Part shown: one piece after another, positions 2,219 to 63,659 of the stretch
How positions within the stretch are numbered: the stretch's first letter is position 1
Layout: every line of letters starts with the position of its first letter
Assembly (NCBI GenBank): GCA_037128175.1
Contig: JBAXWY010000004.1
Span: 64,001-128,000, forward strand
Source of the DNA: Methanothrix sp.
Lineage (GTDB): Archaea > Halobacteriota > Methanosarcinia > Methanotrichales > Methanotrichaceae
Direction of reading: 5' to 3'
DNA length: 64,000 nt
The notes under the pieces: model-generated
What the model saw: the letters and a program-made list of their open reading frames with translations, nothing else
What the model was told of the DNA's origin: nothing
The model's database searches: none
Translations under genes and position numbers: made by a program

Positions 2219-2962
2219 ATGCCCACCCCCGCCTGGCAATACCACGAGCCCGACCACCCCGGCGCCGACTTCGACGCTCTGGCTGAGATCTACGATCGCA
2301 ATATGCAAAAATTTCGAGATGTTCAGGGCGAGATTGAAGAGGTCATGGACTTCCTCACCCTCCGTCCCGATCAGAGCATCCTGGAGATAGGCACGGGCAC
2401 AGGCGAGTTCGCCCTGGCCGCCGCCCGCCGCTGTGCCCGGGTCTACGCCGTGGACCTCTCGCCAGGCATGCTGCGTTATGCCGAAAAGAAGGCCCAGATG
2501 CGCGGTGTGGCCAACGTCGAATTTCTGCCGGGCGGCTTTCTCACCTACCGGCATGAGGGCAAGCCGCTGGACGCCATCGTTAGCCAGATTGCTCTGCACC
2601 ATCTGCCCGACTTTTGGAAGCAGATCGCGCTTTTACGCATGGCAGAGATGCTGGCCGAGGGCGGAAAGCTATGTCTACGGGATGTGGTATACTCCTTTGA
2701 TCCGGCGAAGCACGGGGAATTCCTGGATGAGTTTATCTCGAAGGCCGCAGAAAGAGCAGGCCCGCAGTTTGCTGGCAGAATATCCGACCACGTGAAGAAC
2801 GAGTACTCCACCATGGACTGGATCATGCGGGGCATGATCGAGAGGGCGGGCTTTGAGATAGAAAGGGCGAAGCATAGCCATGGATTCTTCGCCCTCTACC
2901 TGTGCAAGAAGACTACTAATAGCGCATCAGCAGAAGGGATTTCTAATGATCGACTTGGATGA
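2219..2962 (+). CDS. class I SAM-dependent methyltransferase
   Basis: ILEIGTGTG motif I, AVDLSPGML motif II, ALHHLPD. Confidence 0.9.
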   Translation: MPTPAWQYHEPDHPGADFDALAEIYDRNMQKFRDVQGEIEEVMDFLTLRPDQSILEIGTGTGEFALAAARRCARVYAVDLSPGMLRYAEKKAQMRGVANVEFLPGGFLTYRHEGKPLDAIVSQIALHHLPDFWKQIALLRMAEMLAEGGKLCLRDVVYSFDPAKHGEFLDEFISKAAERAGPQFAGRISDHVKNEYSTMDWIMRGMIERAGFEIERAKHSHGFFALYLCKKTTNSASAEGISNDRLG

Positions 2963-4610
2963 GGATGATCTCAGAAAAATGTGCACAGAGGCCTCTTTCG
3001 ACCGGGGGGAGCGATATTTCGAGGAGGGAAGAGTGCGCATCAAGGAGGCAACGCCCACCAGGATAAAGGCGGTTGTGAGAGGGACAGATGATTACCAGGT
3101 GGAAATTGAGCTGGGCGACGAACTCTCAGGCGAATGCAACTGTCCTTACGACTTGGATGGGCTATGCAAACACATAGTTTCTACCTTTCTGGCAGTCATC
3201 CGCGATGATGGGGAGATCGAGCCTCTGATGAAGAAAAGCATCTGTGAATTGGAGGATACTGAATCCCTCCTGAAGCGGGCCGATCCTGAAACTTTGCGAA
3301 ATTTCCTGCTCTCCGAGATGGAACAGCGACCCGATCTTCAGAATCGGTTCAAAGCCGTCTTCGGCAAAAAAGGCGAGGGAAGAAGCCTGAATGATTATAA
3401 GGCTGATGTGGAATCGCTCTACGATGATGTCGAGGATCACGGTTATATCCCTTACGGAGAGGACGTGGATTTCTCTTCGCTAAGCGATCTGGCTGAGATT
3501 TATATTCAGAAAGACGATCTCCTGGAGGCAGCCAAGATCTACCAGGCCATTTCCGAGGTCATAGCTGAGAAAATGGATGATGTGGACGACTCAGACGGCA
3601 ACTATGGAGAAGAGTTCACGGACAGCCTGGATGCATTCACTGACTGCATATCCACGGCCGGACTGGATTCTAATGACAGGAGACCTTACATCAAGTATCT
3701 CTTCGACAGGTACCTGCTAGGTGATCCCGACTATTTCCAGGACGACTACAGCGAAGCCCTGGATAAGCTCTGCAGCGAAGAGGCGGACCGGCGATACTGG
3801 AAAGATCAGCTGGAGCCGCATATGCCTGGTGAGATTCCAAGTGAAAAGGATTGGGGGCACCATCATGATGCAATTGAGCAGGTCTCGATGATGCTTGACC
3901 TTCTCCTAAAACTCGGTGAGAAGGACGAATTTTATGGGCTCATAGAAAAATATTACCGTGCCAGCCATGATCTCTGTCTCAGGTATGGAGAAAAGCTCCT
4001 GGCGGATGGAGAGAAAGCGAAAGCGCTGAAGGTGGCTGAGGAGGGCGTGGCCATCTTTGAAGATCATTTAACCAAGGAATTGCGAGATTTCCTGAGCAGG
4101 ATCTACAAAGAAACCGATCCTAAAAAGTACCGGGATACACTACAGTCGCTATTTCTCCAGAGCGGGGATTGGAAGTATTACGGGCCGCTCAAGAAGTCCT
4201 CTCAGCCGGAGGAGTGGCAAGAGCGGCTGGGCAAGATACTGGCTCACTTTGCAGAGAACAGATCAAACTGGTCCGGCATGAGCAAGCTAATTGATATCTA
4301 TCTTAAAGAGAAGATGTACGATCAGGCCCTGACAGAGGTACTGGCCAAGAGAAGCCTCTCCACTTTGAGACAGTATCAAAATGATCTGGCCTTCCGCTAC
4401 TCTGAGCAGTACTTCAACGTCTACCGGGAGTTAATTATTCCCTTTGCCGATAAGGATACGGGAAGGAAACACTACCAAGAAGTGGTCTCTTATTTGAAGA
4501 GGATGAAATGCATCGAGGGCTACGAAGGGGCCGTTTCAGAGATCGTGGGGCAGCTCAGGGTAGAGCACAGGAGAAAGCCTGCATTCATCGACGAGATGAA
4601 AGAACTCTGA
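2946..4610 (+). CDS. SWIM zinc-finger domain protein
   Basis: RGERYFEEGRV N-terminus, ECNCPYDLDGLCKH SWIM motif, C-terminal HRRKPAFIDEM; ATG 2946 preferred over the ORF-track start. Confidence 0.85.
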   Translation: MIDLDEDDLRKMCTEASFDRGERYFEEGRVRIKEATPTRIKAVVRGTDDYQVEIELGDELSGECNCPYDLDGLCKHIVSTFLAVIRDDGEIEPLMKKSICELEDTESLLKRADPETLRNFLLSEMEQRPDLQNRFKAVFGKKGEGRSLNDYKADVESLYDDVEDHGYIPYGEDVDFSSLSDLAEIYIQKDDLLEAAKIYQAISEVIAEKMDDVDDSDGNYGEEFTDSLDAFTDCISTAGLDSNDRRPYIKYLFDRYLLGDPDYFQDDYSEALDKLCSEEADRRYWKDQLEPHMPGEIPSEKDWGHHHDAIEQVSMMLDLLLKLGEKDEFYGLIEKYYRASHDLCLRYGEKLLADGEKAKALKVAEEGVAIFEDHLTKELRDFLSRIYKETDPKKYRDTLQSLFLQSGDWKYYGPLKKSSQPEEWQERLGKILAHFAENRSNWSGMSKLIDIYLKEKMYDQALTEVLAKRSLSTLRQYQNDLAFRYSEQYFNVYRELIIPFADKDTGRKHYQEVVSYLKRMKCIEGYEGAVSEIVGQLRVEHRRKPAFIDEMKEL

Positions 4611-4672: not shown

Positions 4673-5379
4673 TTGATGCATAAACTCACCGCCTTTGTCT
4701 TTGGAAAAGTGCAGATGGCCGGCTACAGATCTAAGGTAGCGACCATAGCCAGAGCATTTGGCCTTAAAGGGTATGTAAGAAATCTGCAGAACGGCAGAGT
4801 GAAGATATTGGCCGAGGGCCCCCTTGACGATCTGGAGCGGTTTCTTAAGGCCATAAAAATTGATAATACTCTTATCAAAGTTGACGATATCCAAAGCGAG
4901 TTTTCCGATGCATTGGGTGCTTACGACGATTTTTTCAAGGTGGCTGGCGAGAATGAGACCGATGCCCGGCTTGATGTTGCTGCCGGTCATCTTAAAGAAC
5001 TGATTGTGGTAGTGAAAGACGGTTTTAAGGAGACGGTCTCCAAGCTAGGGGGCATGGACGGCAGCCTGAAAGAGATCTCCCATAAACAGGACGAAATGAT
5101 AGTGGAGATGAGAGGCGGATTCAAGGAGCTATCCGGAAAGCAGGACGAAATGATAGCCGAGACGAGAGGCGGCTTCAAGGAAAACAACGAACTGCTCCAA
5201 GAGTTCTCCGCAAAGCAAGATTATGTGATCGATGCCATTGACGAAGCCCGCGCGGACGTCGTCTCCGAAGTGCAAGGCCTGCGCTCGGATCTGAAGGGGA
5301 TCTGAAGGGTCGCATGGATGAGCGGCTGCAGAGGATCGAGAGCGATGTGGTGGAGATCAAGGCCCGCATGAGGCCTTAG
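4673..5379 (+). CDS. acylphosphatase domain plus coiled-coil tail; C-terminus frameshifted by an 11-bp duplication (current stop at 5305, ancestral stop at 5379)
   Basis: VFGKVQMAGYR and GYVRNLQNGRV acylphosphatase motifs; GATCTGAAGGG tandem at 5288-5298/5299-5309. Confidence 0.8.
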
Positions 5380-5454
5380 CTCGTTGTCGTTGTAGCCGAC
5401 GGGTTGATCCCTTAGGAGCAGTATTGGGGTAAACATTACCAGGCCGAGAACATA

Positions 5455-5596
5455 TTCGATTCGTGTTCTAGGCCTGCCTGGGGCGGCGTGGCAGTGTCGC
5501 CCTGCAGAAATCCAGGAAACCGGTGAGACGGGGACGCGATCGGGCCCTTGATTGGGGAGAAGCGCCACCATTTGAGAGGCGGCCCGAGGGCCTGGA
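5455..5596 (+). repeat. GC-rich inter-cassette repeat, copy 1 (diverged)
   Basis: GCCTGCCTGGGGCGGCGTGGCAGT; GCAGAAATC at 5504-5512; CGGGCCCTTG ... GAGGCGGCCCGAGGGCCTGG. Confidence 0.85.
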
Positions 5597-5666
5597 GGAT
5601 GATGATATGGAATGCCGCGTTTCCAGATAGACAAAGAATTTATTCTGACAGTTCTGTTATCAATCC

Positions 5667-6797
5667 ATGAGACTCATCTGGATATTTCTGGGCATAATTG
5701 CCATCGCCGCCAGTACGCCAGACAGAACGCTCGAACAAGCGGACAATGCTACTTCAATAGTGTTCGTATTCGACAGGGATTTCGTGCCCTTCACCTATGA
5801 GGAGAACGGCTCGATCCATGGCTTCGAATTGGACCTGCTCCGGCTGCTGGGCGAAGAGGAAGGTTTTCAGATAATTCCAAAGCCAATGGTTTGGACACAG
5901 GCCATGCTCTCCTTCCAGAAAGGAGATGCTGATGTGATAGGAGGATTGGTCAAGACCCAGGAGAGGCAAAAGCTATACAACTTCACAGCCCACCCACATG
6001 GAACTTTTGACATATTGACCTTCGTTTTGGATGATAGTGAAATCAGATCGACTGCCATGCTTCAGGGCAGAAGAGTGACGGCGCAGAAGGGAAGCATTTC
6101 TTTGGACCTCCTCAAGAATCAGACCGGTTCCCTGGTGCAGGCTTACGATTCCGAGGGCGAGGGGCTTCAGGCTCTCCTCCAGGGAAAGGCAGATGCCTTC
6201 GTGGGCGGAGGTTCCACCACATGGTTTAGGATTAAGCAGCAGAACATCTCCGGCATCAGAGCTCTGGCCATGCCCTGGGAGATGCACTCACTCTACTTTG
6301 GGGTAAGAGATGCAAAGCTCTTGCAGTCCCTTAACCGTGGCATGGAGAAGCTGATTTCGGACGGAAGGTACGACCGGCTCTATCGCAGATGGTTTGTGCA
6401 AGAGCTTGGTGAGGCTGAGATTTTGGCCCTGGTGAATGCCTCCCGCCGGGCCGGTTTCAATGCTTATGCACCATACTCGCGCTACTCGGTGGGTTCGGCG
6501 GTGCTCGCCTCCTCGGGCAAGATCTACACCGGCTGCAATGTCGAGAATGCCCTTTATGGCCTGTCCACCAGCGCTCTGAAGGTGGCGGTCTTCAAGGCGG
6601 TATCAGAGGGCGATGGCAACATCCGGGCAGTGGCCAATTACCTACCGGACGGAAAGGCTGCTGCGCCTACAGGAGACGAACGTCAGATCCTATTCGAGCT
6701 AGGCAGAGGCATTCTGGTAGTCCTGGGGGAAGAAGGAAATTATACGACTAAAATGGTGTCTGAAATCTTCCCCTACCCCTTTGAGATGAGGGATTAA
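5667..6797 (+). CDS. secreted family-3 solute-binding protein fused to a degenerate cytidine deaminase domain
   Basis: signal peptide; DFVPFTY..GFELDLL and DGRYDRLYRRWF SBP_bac_3 motifs; AYAPYSRYSVGSAVL..GKIYTGCNVENA CDA fold without the Zn ligands. Confidence 0.85.
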   Translation: MRLIWIFLGIIAIAASTPDRTLEQADNATSIVFVFDRDFVPFTYEENGSIHGFELDLLRLLGEEEGFQIIPKPMVWTQAMLSFQKGDADVIGGLVKTQERQKLYNFTAHPHGTFDILTFVLDDSEIRSTAMLQGRRVTAQKGSISLDLLKNQTGSLVQAYDSEGEGLQALLQGKADAFVGGGSTTWFRIKQQNISGIRALAMPWEMHSLYFGVRDAKLLQSLNRGMEKLISDGRYDRLYRRWFVQELGEAEILALVNASRRAGFNAYAPYSRYSVGSAVLASSGKIYTGCNVENALYGLSTSALKVAVFKAVSEGDGNIRAVANYLPDGKAAAPTGDERQILFELGRGILVVLGEEGNYTTKMVSEIFPYPFEMRD

Positions 6798-6849
6798 ATG
6801 GGTTCACCTTGATAGTGCCGAAATCCTGCGATTTTTGTGCAGGCTCCGG

Positions 6850-6946
6850 GCCTGCCTGCCTGCCCGTGCGCGCCCACCCACGGGCGCGCACACATGCACG
6901 GGAGCGGGCGCGTGCCAGTGGCAGAGCCAGAATCCTGGGAAGGGCG
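6850..6946 (+). repeat. GC-rich inter-cassette repeat, copy 2 (3'-truncated)
   Basis: CGCCCACCCACGGG..CACGGGAGCGGGCGCGTGCC matches copies 3 and 6; degenerate core GTGGCAGAGCCAGAATCCTGG. Confidence 0.75.
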
Positions 6947-7056
6947 ACTACAGCAAAGAGCGCTCTCATGTGTGTGATCTTGGAATTGACGAGATATTTC
7001 AGGGAATAGAGAGAATGAAGAAGGAGAAAGCGAGAGGCCACCAAGATGACAGATGA
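6933..7056 (+). pseudogene. 3' fragment of an antitoxin paralogous to 8729..8947
   Basis: GKGDYSKERSHVCDLGIDEIFQGIER vs GRGDYTKERSHVLGLTLDEIFMGIEK; no 5' half present. Confidence 0.8.
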
Positions 7057-7417
7057 TATTGCAGGAGATAAGACAGCAGCTCGCAGGCAATCCAAGACCC
7101 GTCAGTATTGCGGCTTTGTGGGCGAGACCAATTACAATGAGGCGTTTATTGAAGAGCTCTACCGTGATTGTGAGGAGAGTGGTTATGATTGCAGCCAGAT
7201 TCCTCTGCCGCGGGATGAGCGGATCGTCGTCGATCCCAAGATCGCCCACGGCAAGCCCATCATACGAGGAACGCGAGTGCCTGTGGCCGTCATCCTGGGT
7301 GCGCTGGCCGGGGGCATGCAGATCGATGAGACTGCCCGGGAGTATGGGATAAGTCAGGAGGACGTGAGGGAGGCGATCGGGTACGCGGCCTGGATCGTCT
7401 CTCAAGAAGATATTTAA
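7046..7417 (+). CDS. chimeric ORF: C-terminal fragment of an AbrB-type antitoxin fused to a DUF433 domain
   Basis: SKTRQYCGFVGETNYNEAFIEELYRDCEESGYD matches the C-terminus of 9305..9526; RIVVDPKIAHGKPIIRGTRVPV..EDVREAIGYA is DUF433. Confidence 0.8.
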   Translation: MTDDIAGDKTAARRQSKTRQYCGFVGETNYNEAFIEELYRDCEESGYDCSQIPLPRDERIVVDPKIAHGKPIIRGTRVPVAVILGALAGGMQIDETAREYGISQEDVREAIGYAAWIVSQEDI

Positions 7418-7440
7418 TCCTGGCAAGCCGATGGTAGTTC

Positions 7441-7587
7441 ATGTATGAGCAAGCTACTCCAATGTCAAAGGGAGAACAAGAGAGATCAGCAAATGCTGTT
7501 GAAGGTTTGACTCCTGGCGAGAGACAGCGCCTTGAAGAAAGCATGCGGCGTAATGAAAAACTCATGAAGCGTTTAGCCGAAATGTGA
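7441..7587 (+). CDS. 48-aa small protein, putative Doc-associated antitoxin (below ORF-track cutoff)
   Basis: hand translation MYEQATPMSKGEQERSANAVEGLTPGERQRLEESMRRNEKLMKRLAEM; C-terminal helix like Doc-partner antitoxins; ends 4 bp from the doc stop. Confidence 0.55.
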   Translation: MYEQATPMSKGEQERSANAVEGLTPGERQRLEESMRRNEKLMKRLAEM

Positions 7588-7591
7588 GCGC

Positions 7592-7951
7592 TCAGAGTCT
7601 ACCGGTGTTTTTCAAAAGCCAGATTTTGACTTCATCGACCTGACATTTGTAACTGGCGATTCTTAGCAGCATTCGGATTATTCTCTCTTCTTTTGCAGTG
7701 ATGGCGTACCCTTCGCTGCTCAGGATTAATTCTGCAATTTGAAAGGCAGATCTCTTGTTTCCATCCAGGAACGGGTGGCAATTAGCGACGAAATGCAGAG
7801 CGATTGCAGCTTTGCGGAAAAGATCTGACTCGGCATTGATCTGATCGACCAGGTAATCGATCGTCCCCTGGCAAAGAACTCCATCTATTCCGCCAAAATT
7901 GCGGATTATAAGCTTATGAATATCCAGGATTTTCTCGGAAGTGAGGATCAT
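7592..7951 (-). CDS. Fic/Doc (death-on-curing) family toxin
   Basis: HPFLDGNKRSA Doc-type motif; likely start MILTSEKILDIH; the ORF-track N-terminal extension is translated repeat copy 3. Confidence 0.9.
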   Translation of the reverse strand: MILTSEKILDIHKLIIRNFGGIDGVLCQGTIDYLVDQINAESDLFRKAAIALHFVANCHPFLDGNKRSAFQIAELILSSEGYAITAKEERIIRMLLRIASYKCQVDEVKIWLLKNTGRL

Positions 7952-8004
7952 GATCGCCACCATTGCGTGAGTTGGCATCATTACTACTAACTTGCGGTGC
8001 CAGT

Positions 8005-8216
8005 CAGCCCTCGCCCACCCGCGGGAGCGCGCGCACGGGCATGGGGGCGGGCGCGTGCCTGAGGCAGCGTGGCAGTCGTTGCAGAAATCAGGAGGGATTG
8101 GGAGGACTGGGGCGTGGTCGGGCCCTCGCCTGGGGGAGATCACCGCCGGTACGGGACGGCCCGAGGGCCCCGGCCACGCTGCGAGGGCAAGGGCGCTGTG
8201 TCGTGGTGGCTCCCGC
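8005..8216 (+). repeat. GC-rich inter-cassette repeat, copy 3 (most complete)
   Basis: GCAGAAATC 8081-8089; G-tract block 8094-8122; inverted arms GCGTGGTCGGGCCCTCG/CGAGGGCCCCGGCCACGC and GCGGGAGC/GCTCCCGC. Confidence 0.9.
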
Positions 8217-8304
8217 AAAAGGGCATTTCGAAGAAAAGATTTAATGTCTATGAGGTCATTTTATCTAGCAGCGTTATTGGCCAAATATTAATAATCATGA
8301 TGAT

Positions 8305-8745
8305 ATGAAAGTCTATATGGACGCCTGCTGTTTATGCAGACCCTTTGATGATCGGACACAAGATCGAATTAGGATCGAAACCGAAGCAGTTTTGACCATC
8401 TTGGGCAGGTGTAATGAGGACTGGATTTTGGTCGGAAGTGAGGCAATTGATTTTGAATTATCCGCCGTGATGGATCAGAAGAAAAGAACAGATGCTTTTG
8501 TACTGGCATCCCTTGCCAAAGAAAAAATAAAGACCGACAAGAGAATCATCAAAAGTGCATCAGAGCTTGAAAAACTTGGCTTTAAAACTATGGACGCCGC
8601 ACACATTTCATGTGCAGAACGAGCAGCGGACATTATGTTTACAGTCGATGATGACGTGCAGAGAGTCGCGAGAATAAAACGAAACCAGATCTCTATCGAA
8701 ATAGAGAATCCTTTGAGGTGGTTGATAAATGTCTTCCAAGACTGA
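8305..8745 (+). CDS. PIN domain toxin
   Basis: KVYMDACCLCRPFDD N-terminus; MDAAHISCAE and FTVDD acidic active-site residues. Confidence 0.85.
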   Translation: MKVYMDACCLCRPFDDRTQDRIRIETEAVLTILGRCNEDWILVGSEAIDFELSAVMDQKKRTDAFVLASLAKEKIKTDKRIIKSASELEKLGFKTMDAAHISCAERAADIMFTVDDDVQRVARIKRNQISIEIENPLRWLINVFQD

Positions 8746-8947
8746 TGTTAGAAGCACAGAGGAGATAAGAAGGATCGGGATAGAAGCACTGGCTGAAGCC
8801 CTCGGACCTTTGGATGCCGTTCGCTTCCTGCAAAGCTTCGACCTGGGGAGAGGCGACTATACCAAGGAGCGCTCTCATGTGCTCGGTTTGACATTGGATG
8901 AAATCTTCATGGGTATCGAAAAACGAAGAAATATTGGTTTAGATTAG
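8729..8947 (+). CDS. small protein, putative antitoxin of the upstream PIN gene
   Basis: 72 aa, overlaps the PIN stop; GIEALAEALGPLDAVRFLQSFDLGRGDYTKER is a pattern typical of PIN-partner small proteins. Confidence 0.7.
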   Translation: MSSKTDVRSTEEIRRIGIEALAEALGPLDAVRFLQSFDLGRGDYTKERSHVLGLTLDEIFMGIEKRRNIGLD

Positions 8948-9190
8948 CATAGATTACAGCGGTTCTGATCCGTGTTCTGGGCCAAAAATGCCAGGCACTC
9001 GTATCACTTATCATTCGGCCCCTGCCCACCCGCGGATGCGCGCCTGCCTGGAGCGGCGTGGCATTCGTCGGCAGAAATCAGGGGGAGCGGGTGAAGGGCG
9101 CGGTCGGGCCTTCGCCTGGGGGATCACCACCGTTACGGAGGCGGCCCGAGGGCCTGGGCCACAGGGGCAAGGGCGCTGAGTCGTGGGGAT
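8942..9190 (+). repeat. GC-rich inter-cassette repeat, copy 4
   Basis: GATTAGCATA at the upstream stop (shared with copy 5); GATCCGTGTTCTGGGCC (shared with copy 1); GCAGAAATC 9071-9079; GCAAGGGCGCTG.GTCGTGG tail shared with copy 3. Confidence 0.9.
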
Positions 9191-9304
9191 GCTGGCCAAG
9201 GTTGTTTGGTGTCGGATAGTGAGCGCGGCCAGGATCGTTAGGGACAAGAATTTGTTATGATGACCAGAAATCATTAAAAGAAGGAGTGCAATAGTACTGA
9301 TAAC

Positions 9305-9526
9305 ATGACTGAAGCCGTAATGGTTGATGGAGGTCTCCTTATTCCAAATAGCCTTCTAACGAAGCTTGGCACAGAAAATCTCGAAGTCTTGACCAGAGGT
9401 CGCGAGATTGTGATCCGGCCAAAAACCAAGACCCGGCAGTATTATGGTTTCATGGGGATCACTAAATATGATGAAAAGCTCATCAAAGAGCTAGAGCATG
9501 ATTGGGAAGAGAGTGGCAAAGATTGA
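9305..9526 (+). CDS. AbrB/MazE-like antitoxin (VapB-type)
   Basis: GGLLIPNSLLTKLG...EIVIRP swapped-hairpin pattern; acidic C-terminus; overlaps the PIN start. Confidence 0.75.
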   Translation: MTEAVMVDGGLLIPNSLLTKLGTENLEVLTRGREIVIRPKTKTRQYYGFMGITKYDEKLIKELEHDWEESGKD

Positions 9527-10029
9527 ATCTAGCAGAGTATTCTTCTCAACATCCGATTTTCATCGACGCCAATATATTTCTTGATTACGCGCTTCCCAAC
9601 ATTGAATTTAGCTGCGCAGCCTCCGATTTCTTAGAGCGAGTCGAGCTGCAAGATATAGTTGCCATCACAACTCCTGTCGTCCTAAACGAAGTCTCTTATA
9701 TTCTGCTCCTCCAACAGGGAATGACGATTTTAGATACCGAAAATAGAGATACTGTGAGGAACAAGATTAAGGCAAATGGCCATTTTGCTCATCTGTGCTA
9801 TGATGCAGTCGATACGTTCAATGAATTTATCAGCGGTCTTGATGGCTTGAAATTGACCCCAGTCCAACCTGAGGATTATTTGCTTGCGTCCGATCTGGGA
9901 AGGGCTTACAATTTGCTGCCAATCGATGCACTCCATCTATCTGCAATGAGGCGGGCCCATATCGTGGATATCGCCAGCAGAGATCGGGATTTTGAGCGAG
10001 TCGATGGAATCGTGATCTGGAGTCCGTGA
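9523..10029 (+). CDS. VapC/PIN domain ribonuclease toxin
   Basis: IFIDANIFL, VLNEV, DALHL, ASRDRDF; TTG at 9523 overlaps the antitoxin TGA. Confidence 0.9.
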   Translation: MNLAEYSSQHPIFIDANIFLDYALPNIEFSCAASDFLERVELQDIVAITTPVVLNEVSYILLLQQGMTILDTENRDTVRNKIKANGHFAHLCYDAVDTFNEFISGLDGLKLTPVQPEDYLLASDLGRAYNLLPIDALHLSAMRRAHIVDIASRDRDFERVDGIVIWSP

Positions 10030-10188
10030 TTAGCATATCTCCGGGTCCCGGTCCCGGTTGAAGATGCCCCGTCGGCCCCCCCGCCCACCCACGGGAGCGC
10101 GCTGGCGTGCGGGCGCATGCCTGGGGGCGGCGTGGCAGTTGTCGGCAGAAATCCGGGTGAGCGGGGGAAGGGCGCGGTCGGGCCTTCC
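10028..10188 (+). repeat. GC-rich inter-cassette repeat, copy 5 (truncated after GGGCCTTC)
   Basis: CGCCCACCCACGGGAGCGC; GCAGAAATC 10145-10153; G-tracts 10155-10182; abrupt switch to AT-rich DNA. Confidence 0.9.
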
Positions 10189-10202
10189 TTAAATAGAAAT
10201 TA

Positions 10203-12782
10203 TTAATTTTCTGAAATTATTATATTCCTAATATCTATTCTACCCAAGTTTAATTGTACATACTTGATTAGCTGCTTCTTATGAGTTCTTAACCATGCGG
10301 GATTGTTTCCCCGATGCAACTCAATTTCCAAGGTTACATCTAGACGGTTTGCAGTTTTCTCATTTATTTCTGAAACCGCTTGGCTGTGATAGAAGAAGTT
10401 GATAATTCTTTTCAGCACGCATATATTTATCTCAGAGCTTGGCTTTTCGAAAAATCTTAGTTCTTTTTTGGGTTCATCTAATGGAGATTCCATTTTCTTG
10501 AAATCGATTTCATCCCTGTTTTTTTTATGATTACATTCACTGCATAATGTCTGTAAATTCTCCATCCTTGTTTCGCCATCCATAGAATCTGGCTTTATAT
10601 GGTCCATCTCCAACTTTGCCAAATGCCCATTCTTCCCGCAACAGAGACATGTATTTTCGTCCCTCTTTAGGATTTGTTTTTTCAATTCCAGTTTCTCTTC
10701 AAGTGTCAACTTATTTTTCGGTTTGCTCAATCCGATTTTGATTTCCGGCCATTTTCCGGTACGCTTATGGTAATTGTATGTATTTAGTGCAGCATCAAAT
10801 GCCGTCTTAAATTTAAATAGATCTTCATTATATACATCAACCCATAAATTGCCTTCTTTGTTAAATTCGAGTTCTAGCTCTTCCCATTGCTCATTGTCAT
10901 TTTTCCGTTCTAATTTCTTAACCAAGACATCTAGATCGTATTTTTCTCGATCCTCCATCGGGTAGAATTCAGGAGCTTCGCCATTTTGTGCAATATGTCT
11001 TGCAATTTTCATTAGGCTATTTTCTAGTGCCTCACTAATATTATCTTCACCCAAATCAAAATACTTCGTCATCCAATTATGAATCTTTGGGGCTAACGTC
11101 CTTTCGTCCAATTTTTCATTTGCCCACTCATGCGGTATGTTCCTGGATTCATTCTTTATAAATTTAATAAACTTTTCTTTCGTCTTATTGTAGACCATCA
11201 CATATTCAACGAATGATGGCAACTCTTCATCGCCACTATTATTACCATTTGAGCTAACGACGATCTCTGTCCTATACCATCCTACTGGTATGTACTCTAA
11301 AAACGGGCCGTCATTAAAATTGATGCCACTTTCAATCTGCCTGCTCAACAGTTCAATCAAACGTATTGGTATTAGTTCACGAGGTCGATATCCTCTAACG
11401 ACCGGAGGTTGTTCCTCTTCGCCTTCTGGATGGGCCCAAACATCAATCAATCCCTTCCAGTTGTCCATGAACAGAATAATATTGGCATGGGTCTTATTTG
11501 GACCGCCCCCTGCCTTTTTGCCCCGTAATGCTCTCCCAATCATCTGCGTCATTAAAATAGGACTAGTCGTTTGTCTCGTGAGCATTACCGTCTTGACATC
11601 AGGGACATCGACACCTTCTGTAAGCATGCGAACATTCGCCAGCACATCATATTTTCCATCCCTAAATTCTTTTATAATCAATTCGGCATCTGGCGTTTTG
11701 TGGGAATCTTTATCGACTTTAGAATAAATGGCTTCGGATTTTATATTAGTATTGCTCAAGCCATTCTTGGTCCGAATTGATCTGACGAGATTCTTATCAT
11801 TTAATTTGCTCTTAAAATATTCACATTGAAACCATCTATCTGCAAAAATTATCGTCTTCCCATATTCTTCACTATTCTTTATATAGTCTGCTATTATAAA
11901 ATCATTTCGTTCATGATCATCAGCTAATTTTTCAATTATATCTTCACGCAAATCTTTATGTTCTCGGACAAGTCGATCTCTGAGGTCGTCATCAACTTCA
12001 AAATCTCTACCAGTCGGCTTAGGAAGATACCTGGGGTTTGCAAGAATATTTTGTGCAATCAAATCCGCCTTTTTGGCTTCATATATAATCTTTTGATTAA
12101 AAATTTTAAAAAGCCAGCCGCTGATTTTCTTTTCAGTATGAGTAGGTGTTGCAGTTAGCCCCAGAACACAAGGCGTTTTAATAATCTCTTTGATGCCCAT
12201 TAGAAGTGTTCGACAACCATAAGCGGGCGCATGATGGGCTTCATCAAGTACAACAAAAAGTCCAGTGTCAACACAACTTTTTATGTATTTTTTAAATTGG
12301 GTTTCTGTTTTCTTTCCTTTTCCATCTTCTGGCTTTGCGTTAAAATAATTGATTGCCGTTTGGGTTGTGACAATTAGAACATCATCTGTCTCCTTGATGG
12401 ATGACGCTTTAGATTGGGATGGATTGCTTGATACAACTCTTATATTCAATGTATTCCTTGTACGAGGTATCTCAATGGCATTGTCTAAAAAAGACTTGCT
12501 TGCCTGATCCAACAAATACGAAGACTGGGCCAACCAAAGAACTTTTATTTTTTTTGGAATAACGTTCCTGCATATCCAATTGATTGCCGTAAAAGTTTTC
12601 CCGGCCCCGGTAGGGAGCACTAACAGCCCGCCAGTGTATTCGTTCGAAGGGAGCAAAAAAGTACTGCTCAATTTTTTAAACGCTTTCTTTTGATGTGGAA
12701 ATGGCTCTTTTGGCAAGTATTCTGAGTTGTCTTTTCTTAATTTTTTAAGATCGATTGATTCATATTGGAGCTTGTTTTCCAT
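10203..12782 (-). CDS. SF2 DEAH helicase (ResIII-like) with C-terminal HNH endonuclease; putative defence protein
   Basis: LPTGAGKT, DEAHH, LGLTATP, QMIGRALR; CLCCG..LEMDHIKP..G...ENLQTLCSECNHKK HNH; markedly AT-rich; ATG 12782 preferred. Confidence 0.9.
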   Translation of the reverse strand: MENKLQYESIDLKKLRKDNSEYLPKEPFPHQKKAFKKLSSTFLLPSNEYTGGLLVLPTGAGKTFTAINWICRNVIPKKIKVLWLAQSSYLLDQASKSFLDNAIEIPRTRNTLNIRVVSSNPSQSKASSIKETDDVLIVTTQTAINYFNAKPEDGKGKKTETQFKKYIKSCVDTGLFVVLDEAHHAPAYGCRTLLMGIKEIIKTPCVLGLTATPTHTEKKISGWLFKIFNQKIIYEAKKADLIAQNILANPRYLPKPTGRDFEVDDDLRDRLVREHKDLREDIIEKLADDHERNDFIIADYIKNSEEYGKTIIFADRWFQCEYFKSKLNDKNLVRSIRTKNGLSNTNIKSEAIYSKVDKDSHKTPDAELIIKEFRDGKYDVLANVRMLTEGVDVPDVKTVMLTRQTTSPILMTQMIGRALRGKKAGGGPNKTHANIILFMDNWKGLIDVWAHPEGEEEQPPVVRGYRPRELIPIRLIELLSRQIESGINFNDGPFLEYIPVGWYRTEIVVSSNGNNSGDEELPSFVEYVMVYNKTKEKFIKFIKNESRNIPHEWANEKLDERTLAPKIHNWMTKYFDLGEDNISEALENSLMKIARHIAQNGEAPEFYPMEDREKYDLDVLVKKLERKNDNEQWEELELEFNKEGNLWVDVYNEDLFKFKTAFDAALNTYNYHKRTGKWPEIKIGLSKPKNKLTLEEKLELKKQILKRDENTCLCCGKNGHLAKLEMDHIKPDSMDGETRMENLQTLCSECNHKKNRDEIDFKKMESPLDEPKKELRFFEKPSSEINICVLKRIINFFYHSQAVSEINEKTANRLDVTLEIELHRGNNPAWLRTHKKQLIKYVQLNLGRIDIRNIIISEN

Positions 12783-12894
12783 CCCAGTCACTACTAGTGC
12801 AAATCCTCCCCAGCCATATAATCTTATCGGAAAATTACAGATGCGACACATCTAATACAAAAGACAATGATGTCATCGCTTTCACAAACCCCAG

Positions 12895-13075
12895 GAACGG
12901 CAGAGATTGCCTCGTCTCCCCGTGGGCCTTCGTCCACCCGCGGGAGCACACGCACAGGCACGGGGGCGGGCGCGTGCCTTGGTCGGTGGCAATCGTCGGC
13001 AGAAATCAGGGGGGTTGGGAGGAGGAAGACGCGGTCGGCCCTCTCACCCGGAGAGAGCGCCGCCGATCCGGGACA
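12895..13075 (+). repeat. GC-rich inter-cassette repeat, copy 6
   Basis: CACCCGCGGGAGCAC..GGCACGGGGGCGGGCGCGTGCC; GCAGAAATC 12999-13007; GCGGTCGGCCCTC. Confidence 0.9.
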
Positions 13076-13164
13076 GCTCACCGCCGCGCCGACCTGCATG
13101 GATCTCTAAATTGAGAAATCTATTTTTAGAGGCAGGGGCGTATTAGTAATGTTTGGTGAGATAG

Positions 13165-13377
13165 ATGGAGGTTCTTGTTAAGAAAGGCGGGATAATTGAG
13201 CTTCCGAGTTCAATATTATCTGAGATCGACCTTTGTGAAGGCAAACGAGTAGCTCTGAGCGTGAAAGGTGGAGAATTGCTCGTCAAGCCGATAAAAAGTC
13301 TTACTGATCAACTTATTGGCTCAATCCGATTCGATGATCAAAAACTTATAGAAGAGATAATCGAATCAGAGGATTAG
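13165..13377 (+). CDS. AbrB/MazE-like antitoxin
   Basis: VKKGGIIELPSSIL...GELLVKP; acidic tail; directly upstream of a PIN gene. Confidence 0.8.
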   Translation: MEVLVKKGGIIELPSSILSEIDLCEGKRVALSVKGGELLVKPIKSLTDQLIGSIRFDDQKLIEEIIESED

Positions 13378-13379
13378 CT

Positions 13380-13886
13380 GTGATTAGCTCTCTGGATTTG
13401 CTTGCGCCCCAATCCAAGATATTTATAGATACAAACATATTTTTGTATGGCGCCATGGACTATTCAAAATACCGAGCTACATGTCGTACGTTCCTGCAAA
13501 ATATTGAATCCGGCACTTATTTTGCAGCCACTTCTGTCCAGGTTTTAAATGAGATCGTCCACAAGCTCATTCTCGCCGAGACCACAAAGACATATCGTTT
13601 GCGAAGCTAGAGCGAAGCCAAGAAGCTAATAGAAGACAAGCCGGAAACGATCTCAAGCCTTACGAGGGTCTGGAAGACCTACGCTGTAATTAGAGCATAT
13701 CCTTTGGTCATCTACAGCATCGATAAGGCCACAATGGATATGGCCGCAGATCTCTCAAGCAGGTATGGGCTCTTCATATCCGATGCATCTCACCTGGCAG
13801 TCATGAAAATGAACGGCATTTCCAATATCGTTACTAATGACAACGATTTTCAGCTAGCAGAAGACATCAGCATTTACAAACCATAA
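13380..13886 (+). pseudogene. VapC/PIN toxin interrupted by an in-frame TAG at 13608-13610
   Basis: IFIDTNIFL and VLNEI before the stop; the same frame continues to DASHL and VTNDNDF; total 507 nt, equal to the paralog 9523..10029. Confidence 0.85.
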
Positions 13887-14025
13887 CGGCATCTGCCCGT
13901 CTTCGTTCCCCGATTGCGGCGACGCTCGCGCCCGCGAGCGTGCGCTGGCGCCTGCCTGGGGCAGCGTGGCAGTCGGCGGCAGAAATCAGGGGGAGCGGGG
14001 GAAGGGCGCGGTCGGGCCCTCGCCC
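13885..14025 (+). repeat. GC-rich inter-cassette repeat, copy 7 (truncated after GGGCCCTCGCC)
   Basis: GCCTGCCTGGGGCAGCGTGGCAGTCGGCGGCAGAAATCAGGGGGAGCGGGGGAAGGGCGCGGTCGGGCCCTCGCC; core at 13979-13987. Confidence 0.9.
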
Positions 14026-14123
14026 TAATAATGAATTGTGGTCGCGTTCGGATTATGTGATGCCATTTATTTCATCAGTCGATAATTTATAGAACTAATA
14101 ACAACTCTATATGGGTTGTGTTG

Positions 14124-16262
14124 ATGACAAAACCAGAAGATAACTCATTGTCTGCTGATAGGGCGTTAGTAGACCCTGATAAAGATCAATTGGGCTATTC
14201 ATCATTTGCAGAACATATATCTAAAATAATTAGCAGTATGGAGCCCTATGACGGATTCGTCATTGCTATCTATGGACCTTGGGGGTCGGGGAAAACTACT
14301 TTGCTAAATTTTGTAAATCACTATCTAAGTCATGCTAATGAAAATGAACCGCCAGTTGTAGTGAGTTTTAATCCGTGGTGGTTTTCTGGCCACGAAGATT
14401 TAACGATACGTTTCTTCTATCAGCTGCAGGCTATCTTGAGCAAGGGAAAGTTCTCAATGAATGATTTAACAAAACAAATGGCAGATTTTGCAGACATTGT
14501 TTCAGATATCCCTATACCATATGCTTCAACCGGAAAAGTAGTATCAAAAATAATTCGCGCAAGGCAAAAAGATATAAATGAATTAAAAAATAATATTTCT
14601 AGATCATTGAAAAAGCAAAACAAGAAGATACTTGTTACAATCGACGACATCGACAGATTGACTCCAGAAGAAATTAGGCAAATATTCAGAGTCGTAAAGG
14701 CAATCGCAGATTTTCCTAATATAATCTATTTAATGGCTTTTGATAAAAGGATAGCCATTAAGGCTTTATCCGAACAAAATGGTTTATCTGGTGAAGAATA
14801 CCTTGAAAAAATCGTTCAACTACCTTTAGAATTACCCCCGCCAGACGAAGCATCTTTCCGATCGATGTTTTTTGGAAAATTAAATAAAATTTTAGGGGAT
14901 ATTCCCGAAGAAGAATTTGATAAAAAATATTGGGAAGAGATTTATTGGAGGGGGTTAGATCGCCTTATCTTCACCCCTCGAGACATAGTTCGTCTCACGA
15001 ATACTCTGAGCATCACTTATCCACTTGTCAAAGGCGAAGTAAATCCGGTAGATTTTATTGCTCTAGAATCAATTAAGATTTTTTGTCCAATAGTTTATAA
15101 TTCTATATCAAACGAGTCTCGAATGTTCATAGGAGTAATTGATGAATATGGATTTAGAGGAGCTCCAAGTCTGGAAGATCACAAGAGCTTTCTTAATTTA
15201 TTATTCGAAAAAGTAGACGACAGAATCAAAGAACCGATTAAGCGTCTTTTAAACCTAATGTTCCCAAAACTGCGAAAAATTTATAGTGATAATAAGAATT
15301 TTTTCGCAGATCAATCCGTGTGCAGAAAGCAACTTCGTATATGCAGCCCAGACATATTTCCAATATATTTCCGATTAGCAATTCCAAAAGGAAGCATATC
15401 AACAATGGAAATAGGTTCAATACTTGCTTTCGCGAGAGATTCGAGGTTATTTGGTTTGAAGCTTTCAGAATTAACTACTATAAAAAGGCCAGATGGTACA
15501 ACTATGGCCAAAGCATTTATTGATCGCCTTAACGACTATACAGATGAGAAAATATTGCTCGAAGAAATACCTACCATAACCAGAGCGCTATTCGAAATGG
15601 GCGATAAATTGCTCGTTCCAGAAGATGAACCACAGGTCGGATTAGAATTATCTTCCGATGCTAAGTTAAGATTTTTGATACGAGATCTCTTATCACGTTT
15701 GGATAAAAAAACAAGATCCGACTTATTAAAGCAAGCCATCACTGAGGGTCATGCTCTTACAATTATCGTTGAATTTGTCGCAATGCTTGATCATGAACAT
15801 GGCAGATTCGATGGAAGTAGTATACTCTCAGAAGAGACTAGAATTGTCGGAGAAGATTGTCTAGACGAATTTGAAGGTATTGCTGTTGAAAAAGTGAATG
15901 AAGCAATTAAAAATGGCAACCTATTAAATGCTAAAAATTTGCCGTCTATCTTGTATTACTGGCATAATTGGCGAAAAGAACAAGTAGTAGGTTGGATTCA
16001 GCAAATCGCAACAGATGACAATAATTTAGTTACATTTTTAGAGAAATTTGTCGCGAAGAGCTATACAAATCTTGGAATCAAATACTTCCTCGATCCAGAT
16101 TCGATAAAGCCATTTATCGATCCCGCCCAAATCATTGATCGAATTCGGACAATTTCGGAAAAAGAAGATCTGAATGAAGGTCAAAGAGCTGCAATTAATT
16201 ATTTCATTCATGGATATGAATTAAAACAGCAGGGCAAAAGCCCAAGCTGGTTCGCAGAATGA
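14124..16262 (+). CDS. KAP family P-loop NTPase (PifA-like), putative defence protein
   Basis: DQLG N-terminal motif, IAIYGPWGSGKT Walker A, FNPWWFS, VTIDDIDRL Walker B, YLEKIVQLP, TPRDIVR; AT-rich. Confidence 0.9.
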   Translation: MTKPEDNSLSADRALVDPDKDQLGYSSFAEHISKIISSMEPYDGFVIAIYGPWGSGKTTLLNFVNHYLSHANENEPPVVVSFNPWWFSGHEDLTIRFFYQLQAILSKGKFSMNDLTKQMADFADIVSDIPIPYASTGKVVSKIIRARQKDINELKNNISRSLKKQNKKILVTIDDIDRLTPEEIRQIFRVVKAIADFPNIIYLMAFDKRIAIKALSEQNGLSGEEYLEKIVQLPLELPPPDEASFRSMFFGKLNKILGDIPEEEFDKKYWEEIYWRGLDRLIFTPRDIVRLTNTLSITYPLVKGEVNPVDFIALESIKIFCPIVYNSISNESRMFIGVIDEYGFRGAPSLEDHKSFLNLLFEKVDDRIKEPIKRLLNLMFPKLRKIYSDNKNFFADQSVCRKQLRICSPDIFPIYFRLAIPKGSISTMEIGSILAFARDSRLFGLKLSELTTIKRPDGTTMAKAFIDRLNDYTDEKILLEEIPTITRALFEMGDKLLVPEDEPQVGLELSSDAKLRFLIRDLLSRLDKKTRSDLLKQAITEGHALTIIVEFVAMLDHEHGRFDGSSILSEETRIVGEDCLDEFEGIAVEKVNEAIKNGNLLNAKNLPSILYYWHNWRKEQVVGWIQQIATDDNNLVTFLEKFVAKSYTNLGIKYFLDPDSIKPFIDPAQIIDRIRTISEKEDLNEGQRAAINYFIHGYELKQQGKSPSWFAE

Positions 16263-16280: not shown

Positions 16281-17891
16281 TCAAGGGCCGGACCTACTTT
16301 TCCCCTTCATCGCTTCCACAAAAGCCAGGAACGGCGGCGACGGCTTGCCCGGTCTGGACTTCATCTCCGGGTGGAACTGCGAAGCAAAGAAGAAGGGATG
16401 CTCGGCGATCTCGCAGATCTCCATCAAATCCCCGTTGGTGCCCGAGAAGATCATGCCCTTCTCCTCAATCTGGGCGATGTAAGCGGGATTAACCTCGTAG
16501 CGGTGCCGGTGCCTCTCCACGATCTCGTCTGTTCCGTAAATCCTGTGCGCCAGGCTGCCCGCTTTCAAATGGGCGGGATAGTTGCCTAACCTCATCGTCG
16601 CGCCCATGTGCCTGATCTTCTCCTGCTCCGGGAGAAGGGCAATCACTGGATTGGGCGTGGCCCCAAACTCCGTGCTGCTAGCGCCCTGCAGGCCGCAGAC
16701 GTTGCGGGCGTACTCGATTACAGCGAGCTGCATTCCGAAGCATATCCCCAGGTAGGGAACCTTCATCTCCCGGGCGTACTGCACGGCCTTCATCTTGCCC
16801 TCTGTCCCGCGGAACCCAAAGCCGCCCGGAACCAGTATGCCGTCCGCGTCTCTCAGGATGATATCCGCCGAGCCGTGCTCCAGCTCCTCGGCATCGATCC
16901 ACTGCACATCAATCTTCACCCCGGCCTCAATGCCGGCGTGCTTGAGGGACTCCCGAATGGAAAGGTAAGCATCCTCCATGGGGTCAGCACACTGCGAGCC
17001 CACGGTGTACTTGCCCACGATGGCCACCTTGACGATGCCCTCGGCTGCGTCCATCTTCTGCACGAACTCGTCCCAGTCTTTCCGCTCTTCCAGGGGGAAG
17101 AGCCGCATGGCCTTCATCAGATACCTGGCCAGGCCCTCCGCCTCCATCTGCAAGGGAACGCGGTAAATGTCGTCGGAATTGTGGGCGCTGATTACGGCCT
17201 CCATAGGCACATCGCAGAAGTGGGCGATCTTGTGCTTGGTCTCCTCCAGGAGGGGGCGCTCGCATCTTACTACGATCATGTCCGGCTGCAAACCCAGCTG
17301 GCGCATCTCTTTCACGCTGTGCTGAGTGGGCTTGGTCTTCTGCTCGCCATCCATGGTGGAAGGGGCGAGGGTGACATGCACAAAGAAGATGTTGCCCGTC
17401 TCTTCATACTTGAGCTGGCGCATGGCCTCCAGGAAGGGCATGGACTCGATGTCGCCCACCGTCCCACCCACCTCGATCAGACATATCTCGCAGCCTCCGT
17501 CCCGGGAAACCTGGCGAATGCGTCTCTTGATCTCTTCGGTGATGTGGGGGATGATCTGCACCGTCTTGCCCAGATACTCGCCTCTGCGCTCTTTTTCGAT
17601 GACAGTGCTGTAAACCTTGCCGGTGGTGATGTTGTGGTCGCGGGTCAGTTCCACATCTAAAAAGCGTTCGTAGTTGCCCAGATCAAGGTCCACCTCGCCC
17701 CCATCCTTGAGGACATAAACCTCTCCATGCTGGAATGGGCTCATGAGTCCGGCATCGATGTTGATGTAAGGATCAATTTTAATGGCTGTAACCTTATAGC
17801 CCCTGTTCATGAGCAGCCTGCCGATGGACGCCGCAGTAATGCCCTTGCCAAGGCCGCTCATAACCCCGCCTGTGACCACGATATATCTCAT
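16281..17891 (-). CDS. pyrG: CTP synthase
   Basis: [49 protein letters not shown]. Confidence 0.98.
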
Positions 17892-63332: not shown

Positions 63333-63659
63333 TCAGGGTTCGAGGTGATCTCTCTTCAGCTCGTCTATTGCCTCAGGCGTGAGACGGATTTCTGCCAATT
63401 GAATGGCACCCATGGAAGAGATCATCCTGATCATCAGATCCGAGATGGAGCGTCCGAGATCCTCATCTTTGCTGGATAGAGCCATGGACAGGGCACATCC
63501 CAGGTTATAGGCGGTCCAGCTGGCATAAGTGAAATGGACCATAAGATCCTCCATTCCTCCTTCAATCCAGGGGCCCTCAGAGTCAGGCCCGATCACCCTC
63601 GATCTGATACTCTTGAAGCTCTGGATTTTTGCCTCAAACTGAACTAAGCCATCTATCAT
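63333..63659 (-). CDS. hypothetical protein
   Basis: 108 aa ORF only; no recognised motif. Confidence 0.45.
   Translation of the reverse strand: MIDGLVQFEAKIQSFKSIRSRVIGPDSEGPWIEGGMEDLMVHFTYASWTAYNLGCALSMALSSKDEDLGRSISDLMIRMISSMGAIQLAEIRLTPEAIDELKRDHLEP

Follow-up and report, generated by a model that had tools for sequence, protein, structure and literature searches.

The 64,000-nt stretch analysed here (the window) represents positions 64,001 to 128,000 of contig JBAXWY010000004.1 from a Methanothrix sp. assembly (GCA_037128175.1; 2.96 Mb, 98 contigs, 51% GC), and coordinates given below without a locus or contig name count from its first base. Within it, on the 140-kb contig designated C4, is a series of seven GC-rich repeats that all lie on the + strand between 5472 and 14031, with a toxin-antitoxin (TA) or defence module between each (Table 1). 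The array is bordered on the left by truA, a methyltransferase gene and the genes of a SWIM-like protein and an acylphosphatase, and on the right by the CTP synthase gene pyrG. It is best read as a repeat-punctuated cassette array that is genus-specific and previously undescribed.

Exact matches to GCAGAAATC are found on the + strand at 5504, 8081, 9071, 10145, 12999 and 13979, as reported in a preliminary description of the window made from its letters, and only one further exact match exists in the window, on the - strand at 63387. When one mismatch is allowed the window contains 22 matches against 23.9 expected, which is not above chance, so the signal is the long repeat and not the word. 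The shared blocks of the repeat listed in that description were likewise recovered by a repeat search and MAFFT alignment. A profile built from the seven copies (nhmmer) and run on the whole assembly gave seven matches, all on C4 in one 8.6-kb stretch (E 6.5e-22 to 9.9e-43), followed only by matches at E 0.053 (C61:3882-3927, 13 bits, also a 28-nt blastn match) and 2.9; blastn agrees with the profile, its sole match outside the array being the 28 nt on C61. The observation that the repeat is absent from the remainder of the window therefore extends, by the profile, to the rest of the assembly. The copies are spaced 0.8-2.7 kb apart and have a GC content of 62-71%, against 51% for the genome. 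Seven copies had been counted originally and the profile returns that number; the "degenerate copy near 6925", however, is the 5′ half of a repeat (~6850-6912), lacking a core, joined to the remnant (6922-7020) of a gene like that at 8729-8947, the product of which matches the remnant at 61% in tblastn. A full-length version of this gene follows the same half-repeat in L021, L035 and L038, three of the loci (L) fetched from relatives.

The repeat measures 135-250 nt, and the fullest copies (~250 nt) start at the stop codon of the upstream gene and are made up of four parts, namely a short leader, a GC-rich and weakly palindromic 5′ part with GCCCACCCGCGGG, a 66-nt core, and a 3′ extension that contains GGCCCGAGGGCC and GGGGCAAGGGCGCTGGG. 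Reading of the sequence bears out that copies 4, 5 and 7 start at the upstream stop codon and that the 10-mer GATTAGCATA is found at the stop codons preceding copies 4 and 5; the leader of copy 4 is common to copies in L021 and L032. The core takes the form TGCCTGGGGCGGCG..GGCAG..GGCRGAAATC..GGGCGCGGTCGGGCC, and over 48 distinct cores drawn from all loci the blocks TGCCTGGGGCGGCG, GGCRGAAATC and GGGCGCGGTCGGGCC reach a conservation of at least 85-95%, with variable stretches in between. Different repeats have a core identity of 0.77 within a genome (16 pairs) and 0.75 between genomes (419 pairs), which gives no clear signal of concerted evolution within genomes. The composition of the core is 51% G and 24% C, 27 of the 48 cores contain a canonical G-quadruplex motif, and the array (8.7 kb) holds six of the 97 such motifs of the genome. 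In the window these motifs are on the + strand (8094-14016) and occupy a corresponding position in copies 3, 4, 5 and 7; copy 4 contains one more.

The lengths of the 48 cores are distributed 29/10/9 modulo 3, which indicates that the core is not a reading frame, as had been stated earlier, and open reading frames (ORFs) overlapping the repeat have no Pfam match; a protein-coding remnant was rejected on these two grounds. The GC-rich 5′ part is weakly palindromic in copies 2, 3 and 5 (70-76% complementary in an inverted-repeat scan), and folds that include it are no better than those of shuffled sequences. In 28 single-strand DNA folds (cores, and 5′ part plus core, both strands) z ranged from -1.81 to +1.82 relative to shuffles, an RNAalifold consensus of 47 copies contained 0 pairs, and 44 distinct long-form copies aligned over the 3′ extension gave 9 pairs with a covariation term of -0.01. 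Rfam 15 yielded no match at gathering score in the region and none at E up to 1 over 5300-14200. An RNA or folded-DNA element was rejected because folding is at shuffle level and neither covariation nor an Rfam match was detected; terminal inverted repeats are also lacking in the repeat. Each repeat sits between the stop codon of one module and a T-rich, promoter-like stretch of the next, and, should transcription stop at the T run, would form a transcribed 3′ tail.

Table 1. Repeat copies, cassette genes and flanking features of the array, in window coordinates
Feature	Position	Strand	Evidence and remarks
Acylphosphatase-domain gene, left flank	4673..5305	+	Pfam PF00708 5.9e-19
Repeat copy 1	5472..5616	+	nhmmer 78 bits, model 84-202; core and 3′ extension, without GC-rich 5′ part
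SBP_bac_3 domain fused to cytidine deaminase	5667..6797	+	Pfam SBP_bac_3 5.7e-24, dCMP_cyt_deam_2 2.8e-8
Repeat copy 2, truncated	6830..7001	+	nhmmer 94.5 bits (copy itself in model); no core
DUF433 antitoxin-like gene	7046..7417	+	Pfam DUF433 3.7e-20
Fic/Doc toxin gene	7592..7990	-	Pfam Fic 1.2e-10
Repeat copy 3, long form	7983..8204	+	nhmmer 146 bits
PIN gene (8305-8745) and 72-amino-acid partner (8729-8947)	8305..8947	+	Pfam PIN 2.5e-4, below cut-off
Repeat copy 4, fullest	8945..9200	+	nhmmer 127 bits (8992-9184); begins at upstream stop codon
AbrB-like antitoxin (9305-9526) and VapC/PIN toxin (9502-10029)	9305..10029	+	Pfam PIN 1.6e-11
Repeat copy 5	10030..10200	+	nhmmer 105 bits, model 6-169; begins at VapC stop codon, ends right after core
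ResIII/DEAD helicase-HNH nuclease fusion	10203..12851	-	Pfam ResIII 1e-20, Helicase_C 1.6e-12, HNH 4.2e-11
Relic of pyrG 3′ end	12873..12906	-	direct repeat with 16307-16340, 85% over 34 nt
Repeat copy 6	12903..13096	+	nhmmer 140 bits
AbrB-like antitoxin (13165-13377) and VapC/PIN with TAG (13380-13886)	13165..13886	+	NCBIfam AbrB 8.8e-4; Pfam PIN 3.4e-11, TAG as X
Repeat copy 7	13885..14031	+	nhmmer 101 bits, model 24-166; begins at VapC stop codon, ends 7 nt past core
KAP-family NTPase, PifA type, last cassette	14118..16262	+	Pfam KAP_NTPase 3.7e-66; PADLOC PifA 1.2e-119
CTP synthase gene pyrG, right flank	16281..17891	-	Pfam CTP_synth_N 8.8e-124; 89-100% identical genus-wide

Searches of the Methanothrix genomes found the repeat in 25 of 59 (14 of 30 among those of high quality) and in none of 16 genomes from other genera of the class. 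An exact pattern searched among 185,579 species genomes returned 13 stretches, every one titled Methanothrix or Methanotrichaceae, and the same pattern was detected in 15 metagenome stretches; viral contigs, searched with two patterns, contained no copy, and a mobile-element origin was discarded on this absence. By tally, 13 of the 14 genomes with a full-length pyrG product at least 96% identical to that of the window have the repeat, as do 7 of 25 where the identity is 89-95%; in the sole negative genome of the former group, G050, pyrG is terminal on a short contig. In each relative the copies are grouped on one contig, and pyrG is on the same fetched stretch as the repeat in 10 loci in addition to the window, in every case encoded on the other strand from the repeat. 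The acylphosphatase and SWIM genes are found at the other end of the array in genomes G012, G051, G065 and G068, and the acylphosphatase gene adjoins the array also in G012, G051, G065 and G052 (55-89% in tblastn; L021, L035, L038 and L077). No locus has mixed strands among the 98 copies in 44 loci. Repeat-to-repeat intervals have a median of 876 nt (54 intervals), 46 of the 54 measuring 481-1214 nt, and 90 of 125 ORFs are co-oriented with the repeat, so that for most cargo the coding strand is the G-rich one. Among 61 non-redundant interval ORFs, some of them surely spurious frames, are 9 PIN, 6 Fic/Doc and 3 DUF433 proteins, and single cases include DUF5615, TIR, pentapeptide, metallophosphatase, TPR, helicase-HNH and SBP-deaminase. 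The defence content varies by lineage, with PifA in the window and SIR2+HerA and TIR in G068. The complete but more distant genome G052 (pyrG 91.6%) is profile-negative for the repeat; it keeps Doc and AbrB/VapC modules between acylphosphatase and pyrG, and its intergenic stretches (L077 3500-4700) contain GC-rich remnants with the 5′ part of the repeat and no core, so that the arrangement is an old one in the genus.

The content of the array is not fixed. In the fetched loci, repeat pairs with a common neighbouring cassette share the upstream one only in 39 cases, the downstream one only in 44 and both in 3, and array maps built from protein clusters contain about ten recurring cassette types in an order that differs between arrays. 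The AbrB-a/VapC-a cassette, for example, has at least seven different successors in nine arrays (helicase-HNH, PIN, AbrB-c/VapC-b twice, pentapeptide plus phosphatase, DUF433/DUF5615, SBP-deaminase, VapC-c and one unnamed frame). In L061, a metagenome contig 92-93% identical to the window, a PIN cassette is followed by a hybrid repeat, KAP and pyrG; the leader and 5′ part of this repeat resemble copy 4 and its 3′ end copy 7, three cassettes of the window are absent, and the junction of copy 7 with the KAP cassette is that of the window. In L024 (G016) the two AbrB/VapC cassettes that flank helicase-HNH in the window are joined by a single repeat, which is copy 5-like at its 5′ end and copy 6-like beyond the GAAATC word, and the helicase-HNH cassette is absent. 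Compared in this way, both loci differ from the window by clean cassette loss or gain that has left hybrid repeats, and these two loci and the array maps provide the gain, loss and reordering of modules, with breakpoints in the repeat, that the preliminary description had proposed looking for across relatives.

The position of the junctions was located with cassette pairs of at least 88% identity, positions being numbered from the start of the core. In 12 pairs with the same upstream cassette only, identity is 0.84-0.97 from -250 to -50, 0.74-0.84 through the core to +75, and 0.48 by +100, and in 8 pairs with the same downstream cassette only it is 0.34-0.51 before -25 and 0.81-0.98 after +75. 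Sixty sampled unrelated pairs have an identity of ~0.4 before the core and a peak of 0.76 in its first 25 nt. On these alignments the repeat is seen to move with the upstream cassette, and linkage to switch within or just past the core. Homology with the common neighbour ends near +66, +85, +105 or +155 in single alignments; 3-7 nt separate the core from the start of the KAP, helicase-HNH and one AbrB cassette type, and most copies continue into a 3′ extension of ~100 nt. The downstream cassette has no single nucleotide as a fixed left edge.

A further possible trace of recombination involves the flanking core gene. The relic of the pyrG 3′ end in the window is located just before copy 6, 3.4 kb from the true pyrG end, has in-frame peptide similarity to the pyrG C-terminus and matches the pyrG ends of other genomes at ~89%. 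Genome G068 contains a 40-nt relic of the same segment (L042 5607-5646), 2.9 kb from pyrG, with the SIR2+HerA pair between, so that in both genomes the pyrG-proximal cassettes lie between two copies of a 34-40-nt piece of the pyrG 3′ end. The two relics have one base in common that differs from the real pyrG ends. They may go back to one old event or to one kind of inserting element, and duplications of this sort are the expected trace of a single crossover by a circle via pyrG homology, or of an integrase aimed at the pyrG end.

The modules of the window were identified with Pfam, NCBIfam and PADLOC, and their contents agree with those originally described. From their domain content the PIN, Fic/Doc, DUF433 and AbrB pairs are predicted type II TA modules (VapBC, Phd/Doc-like and DUF433/DUF5615). 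Several cassettes recur in relatives, including the 132-amino-acid Fic/Doc product (78-92% identical in L004, L025, L037 and L043), the PIN gene with its 72-amino-acid partner (86-100% identical in L021, L027 and L061, in differing array contexts) and the first AbrB/VapC cassette (92-99% identical in L003 and L024). The last cassette encodes a predicted PifA abortive-infection protein, residues 9-688 of which align to positions 3-707 of the 720 of PADLOC PifA, a full-length match; helicase-HNH has partial PADLOC matches to PbeA and a type IV restriction enzyme. In the second AbrB/VapC cassette, the in-frame TAG of vapC corresponds to a glutamate codon in an otherwise 96% identical ortholog in G015 and is thus a plain nonsense mutation, so that the VapC half of the module is probably inactive; the antitoxin gene is intact. 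The SBP-deaminase gene scores 96 bits with the NCBIfam cytidine deaminase model (cut-off 74), and its cassette occupies other array positions in L062 and L040. A complete cytidine deaminase within an array of G-rich, R-loop-prone repeats is a curious pairing.

Residues 7-48 of the DUF433 protein match the C-terminus of the AbrB-like antitoxin encoded by 9305-9526 (at 9398-9523) at 52%, a likeness that points to mosaic antitoxins made by recombination between cassettes. In G012 the array's DUF433 gene is interrupted by an IS605-type TnpB gene (Cas12f1-like TNB plus OrfB_IS605; L021 6185-7009, - strand), at a place where the sequence of the window is unbroken (7148/7149). To the left of the array, the SWIM-like protein (2880-4610, 576 amino acids) has partial matches to the PADLOC candidate PDC-S62 (9e-20) and to the N-terminus of DpdE and is patchy in the genus, being found in 19 of 59 genomes; this neighbour may itself be accessory defence cargo.

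To our knowledge, integrons are the only well-understood system in which single-gene cassettes are stored and reshuffled at one locus. They depend on folded attC sites and on IntI, and the end motifs of attC are RYYYAAC ... GTTRRRY. The movement of the Methanothrix repeat with its upstream cassette, and the switch of linkage in or after the core, give the same cassette-then-site order as in integrons, and the two are also alike in their small TA-rich cassettes, in a site that lies 3′ of the gene or genes and travels along with them, in an order that varies among relatives and in their confinement to one chromosomal locus. The integron-like character suggested at the outset thus stands for the co-oriented layout at one locus, the cassette-sized intervals, the TA and defence cargo and the shuffled order, but not for recombinase-driven capture, which is not supported, given the lack of attC motifs, of a fold, of covariation and of a linked or co-occurring recombinase and a left edge that is not fixed. 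Unlike integron sites, the repeat is G-rich and conserved in sequence, without attC motifs, hairpin or covariation, and is not adjoined by IntI (which is not needed in a cluster of attC sites lacking integron integrases, or CALIN); the left edges of the cassettes do not fall at one nucleotide, and the system is restricted to one archaeal genus. Neither attC end motif, taken as the consensus given above, is found in any of the seven copies, and the array has no paired occurrence of them on either strand. An attC array or integron was rejected on the lack of attC motifs, fold, covariation and an Rfam match, in keeping with the non-attC site proposed earlier. In layout, seven co-oriented sites with gaps of <4 kb correspond to the integron/CALIN definition of at least two sites <4 kb apart in one orientation that is given in a survey of archaeal integrons in metagenome-assembled genomes (PMC9668308), although the sites are not attC. 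The survey, with its positive genomes tabulated in the supplement, used attC models and IntI, and the Methanothrix locus would not match these.

Other cassette systems share different subsets of these features. The dif modules of Acinetobacter plasmids, which often encode TA systems, are bounded by Xer sites that are ~28-bp palindromes in alternating orientation. The Methanothrix array resembles them in its discrete, often TA modules with a conserved bounding site, reshuffled without a recombinase of their own, and is distinguished from these short, palindromic, alternating plasmid sites by a chromosomal, non-palindromic site of 135-250 nt in direct orientation. In Neisseria, the cassettes of minimal mobile elements are exchanged by homologous recombination via conserved flanks, and recombination of pilin cassettes is promoted by a G-quadruplex at one locus. 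Homology-flanked cassette exchange (proposed for Methanothrix) and a G-rich, quadruplex-prone sequence (in Methanothrix a motif only, in 27 of the 48 cores) are common to both, whereas Neisseria has one pair of flanks or a single G-quadruplex and the Methanothrix repeat follows every module. We know of no conserved repeat that punctuates every module in the defence hotspots of Escherichia coli, from which the Methanothrix island differs in having one after each module. The two agree in a fixed position between core genes (the truA side and pyrG in Methanothrix), in defence systems that vary by lineage and in the absence of an integrase, the E. coli islands being described as lying between core genes and lacking mobility genes (PMC10121019).

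The explanation preferred here, which we judge to have about an even chance of being correct, is that of a hypervariable TA/defence island beside pyrG that is built as a cassette array and reshuffled by homologous recombination in the G-rich repeat. Each unit consists of one small module followed by a G-rich repeat of 135-250 nt that neither codes nor folds, the module being mostly AbrB/VapC, DUF433/DUF5615 or Doc and sometimes PifA, helicase-HNH, TIR or SBP-deaminase. Lineages exchange, lose, gain and reorder such units, with junctions in or just past the core. The repeats would serve as portable homology for general homologous recombination, by way of unequal exchange with the DNA of relatives, cassette loss through direct-repeat deletion and possibly loop-out circles that re-enter at another repeat. 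Homologous recombination fits the data in that the junction zone coincides with the only part common to different repeats, the end points of the junctions vary and a duplicated piece of the flanking core gene is present, and it explains the data at least as well as recombinase-driven capture. The data themselves show the repeats, their single locus and common orientation, the reshuffling and the junction zone, as well as the lack of attC features and of a linked or co-occurring recombinase, whereas the recombining enzyme, any circular intermediate and the reason for the conservation of the core blocks are parts of this scheme that we infer; it is suspected that the core is conserved as a protein-binding site, or as a G-quadruplex that promotes recombination. 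Contigs of the sequencing run X8 (mixed relatives, 90% likeness) link copies 3-4, 4-5, 1-6 and back 6-1, with sides of 25-54 nt, and offer a hint only of recombination.

Several observations weigh against this explanation. Different repeats are only ~75% identical over the core, a level at which homologous recombination is usually inefficient. Homologous recombination alone leaves unexplained the conservation of short core blocks at 95% or more over the 48 distinct copies, the framing of unrelated cargo (PifA, helicase-HNH, TIR and SBP-deaminase) and the absence of inverted copies among the 98, and direct repeats should vanish by deletion unless they are maintained. Recombination is read from the comparison of arrays, no event having been caught directly, and contigs from two other lake-water samples (X4 and X6), which often break off at repeats, do not differ from the window array in the listed pieces; a further run, X7, gave short pieces only. 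In G067, moreover, a repeat copy with an AbrB-like gene (L041, C11 at ~284.8 kb) is located 145 kb from pyrG on the same contig, which implies displacement of the array, in whole or in part, or a rearrangement of the genome. The low core identity, the conserved blocks, the strict co-orientation and the unrelated cargo keep both a dedicated site-specific reading and a regulatory one alive.

In the first of these, which is possible but rather unlikely, a recombinase encoded in trans would recognise the double-stranded core and cross over at its 3′ edge, in a system analogous to the integron. The gene(s)-then-site architecture, as in integron cassettes, and the switch of linkage near the 3′ end of the core would be expected of it, as would the start of the repeat at the stop codons of three unrelated upstream genes, the strict co-orientation of the copies, the conservation of core blocks among otherwise diverged copies, the framing of unrelated cargo by the same site and the beginning of three different cassettes within a few nucleotides of the core; in alignments, the words CTGCC..GGCAG..GGCAG of the core could be protein-binding sites. 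However, among matches to the phage-integrase (PF00589) and IS200-type Y1 transposase families none lies in the window, as had been stated of recombinases, or on the 140-kb contig; PF00589 matches are found on C5, C6, C7, C28 and C29, and Y1 matches exist in the genome but not on the array contig. Nor do the two full-length tyrosine recombinases of the genome track the repeat in the 59 genomes, in answer to the earlier proposal to look for a co-occurring enzyme. The first is present in 14 of 25 genomes with the repeat and 21 of 34 without it, and the second in 15 of 25 and 10 of 34; the SWIM-like protein, the third candidate profiled (serine recombinases, DDE enzymes and Cas1 were not), likewise does not track it, at 12 of 25 and 7 of 34, and is missing from the complete, array-bearing genome G020. 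Both tyrosine recombinases resemble integrases of mobile elements, being multi-copy with many of the copies broken. The continuation of most copies ~100 nt beyond the core, the variable ends of homology and the absence of the repeat from viral contigs also count against a site-specific system. A fully independent archaeal parallel to the integron, with a double-stranded, G-rich and hairpin-free site acted on by a trans enzyme of unknown family or by breaks triggered by G-quadruplexes or R-loops, is equally improbable without being negligible.

Less likely again is that the repeat is a local functional element (a 3′ untranslated region, an insulator, or a series of sites bound by a regulator or a chromatin protein) and that reshuffling is a by-product. 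This would suit conservation in sequence blocks and not in structure, the location of the repeat between a stop codon and a T-rich promoter-like stretch and the co-orientation of most ORFs with the G-rich strand, and G052 retains TA modules with only decayed remnants of the repeat. On the other hand, two RNA runs contain only 0.06 of the sampled words, Rfam gave no match at the permissive threshold, and the confinement to a single locus is unexplained, the other TA modules of the genome having no repeat by the profile search.

A history in which one vapBC unit and its intergenic spacer were duplicated in tandem and then diverged, without cassette mobility, is very improbable. The intervals are mostly TA-sized, many cassettes are AbrB/VapC paralogs and the L021 array has two cassettes at least 88% alike, but identity is 26% between the two VapC proteins of the window as against ~77-92%, in nucleotides, between their repeats, the cargo families are mutually unrelated, the same cassette has many different neighbours across genomes and hybrid repeats mark clean gain or loss; simple tandem duplication is close to refuted. 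A dispersed miniature inverted-repeat transposable element (MITE) or repetitive extragenic palindromic (REP) element, or a decayed gene, has almost no standing and for the source assembly is refuted: the repeat is short, GC-rich, repeated and non-coding, but it has no copy outside the locus by blastn or profile, no terminal inverted repeats and no fold, and for a gene neither the frame nor a Pfam match is kept. The repeat is therefore neither dispersed nor a decayed gene and module order is not fixed, any of which would have counted against the preliminary description.

A full-text search of the literature found no description of the array or the repeat, although supplementary tables could hold a mention. 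Cassette arrays and defence hotspots are known as a class; what is new is a non-attC, sequence-conserved punctuation repeat in one of them, in a single archaeal genus. Methanothrix is an abundant genus that includes key acetate-using methane producers of lakes, sediments and digesters, and in it the behaviour of integrons at the population level (one locus, one site per module, shuffled order) is found without integron hallmarks at the site. If homologous recombination is responsible, a simple repeat makes an archaeal defence island a modular, exchangeable library; if a dedicated enzyme is involved, it would represent a new recombination system, and an independent parallel to the integron would mean that modular gene capture has arisen a second time, in archaea, with TA and anti-virus modules stocked at pyrG. 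In either case the array is a concrete locus, easy to score, at which gene flow and the turnover of defence genes in Methanothrix can be studied.

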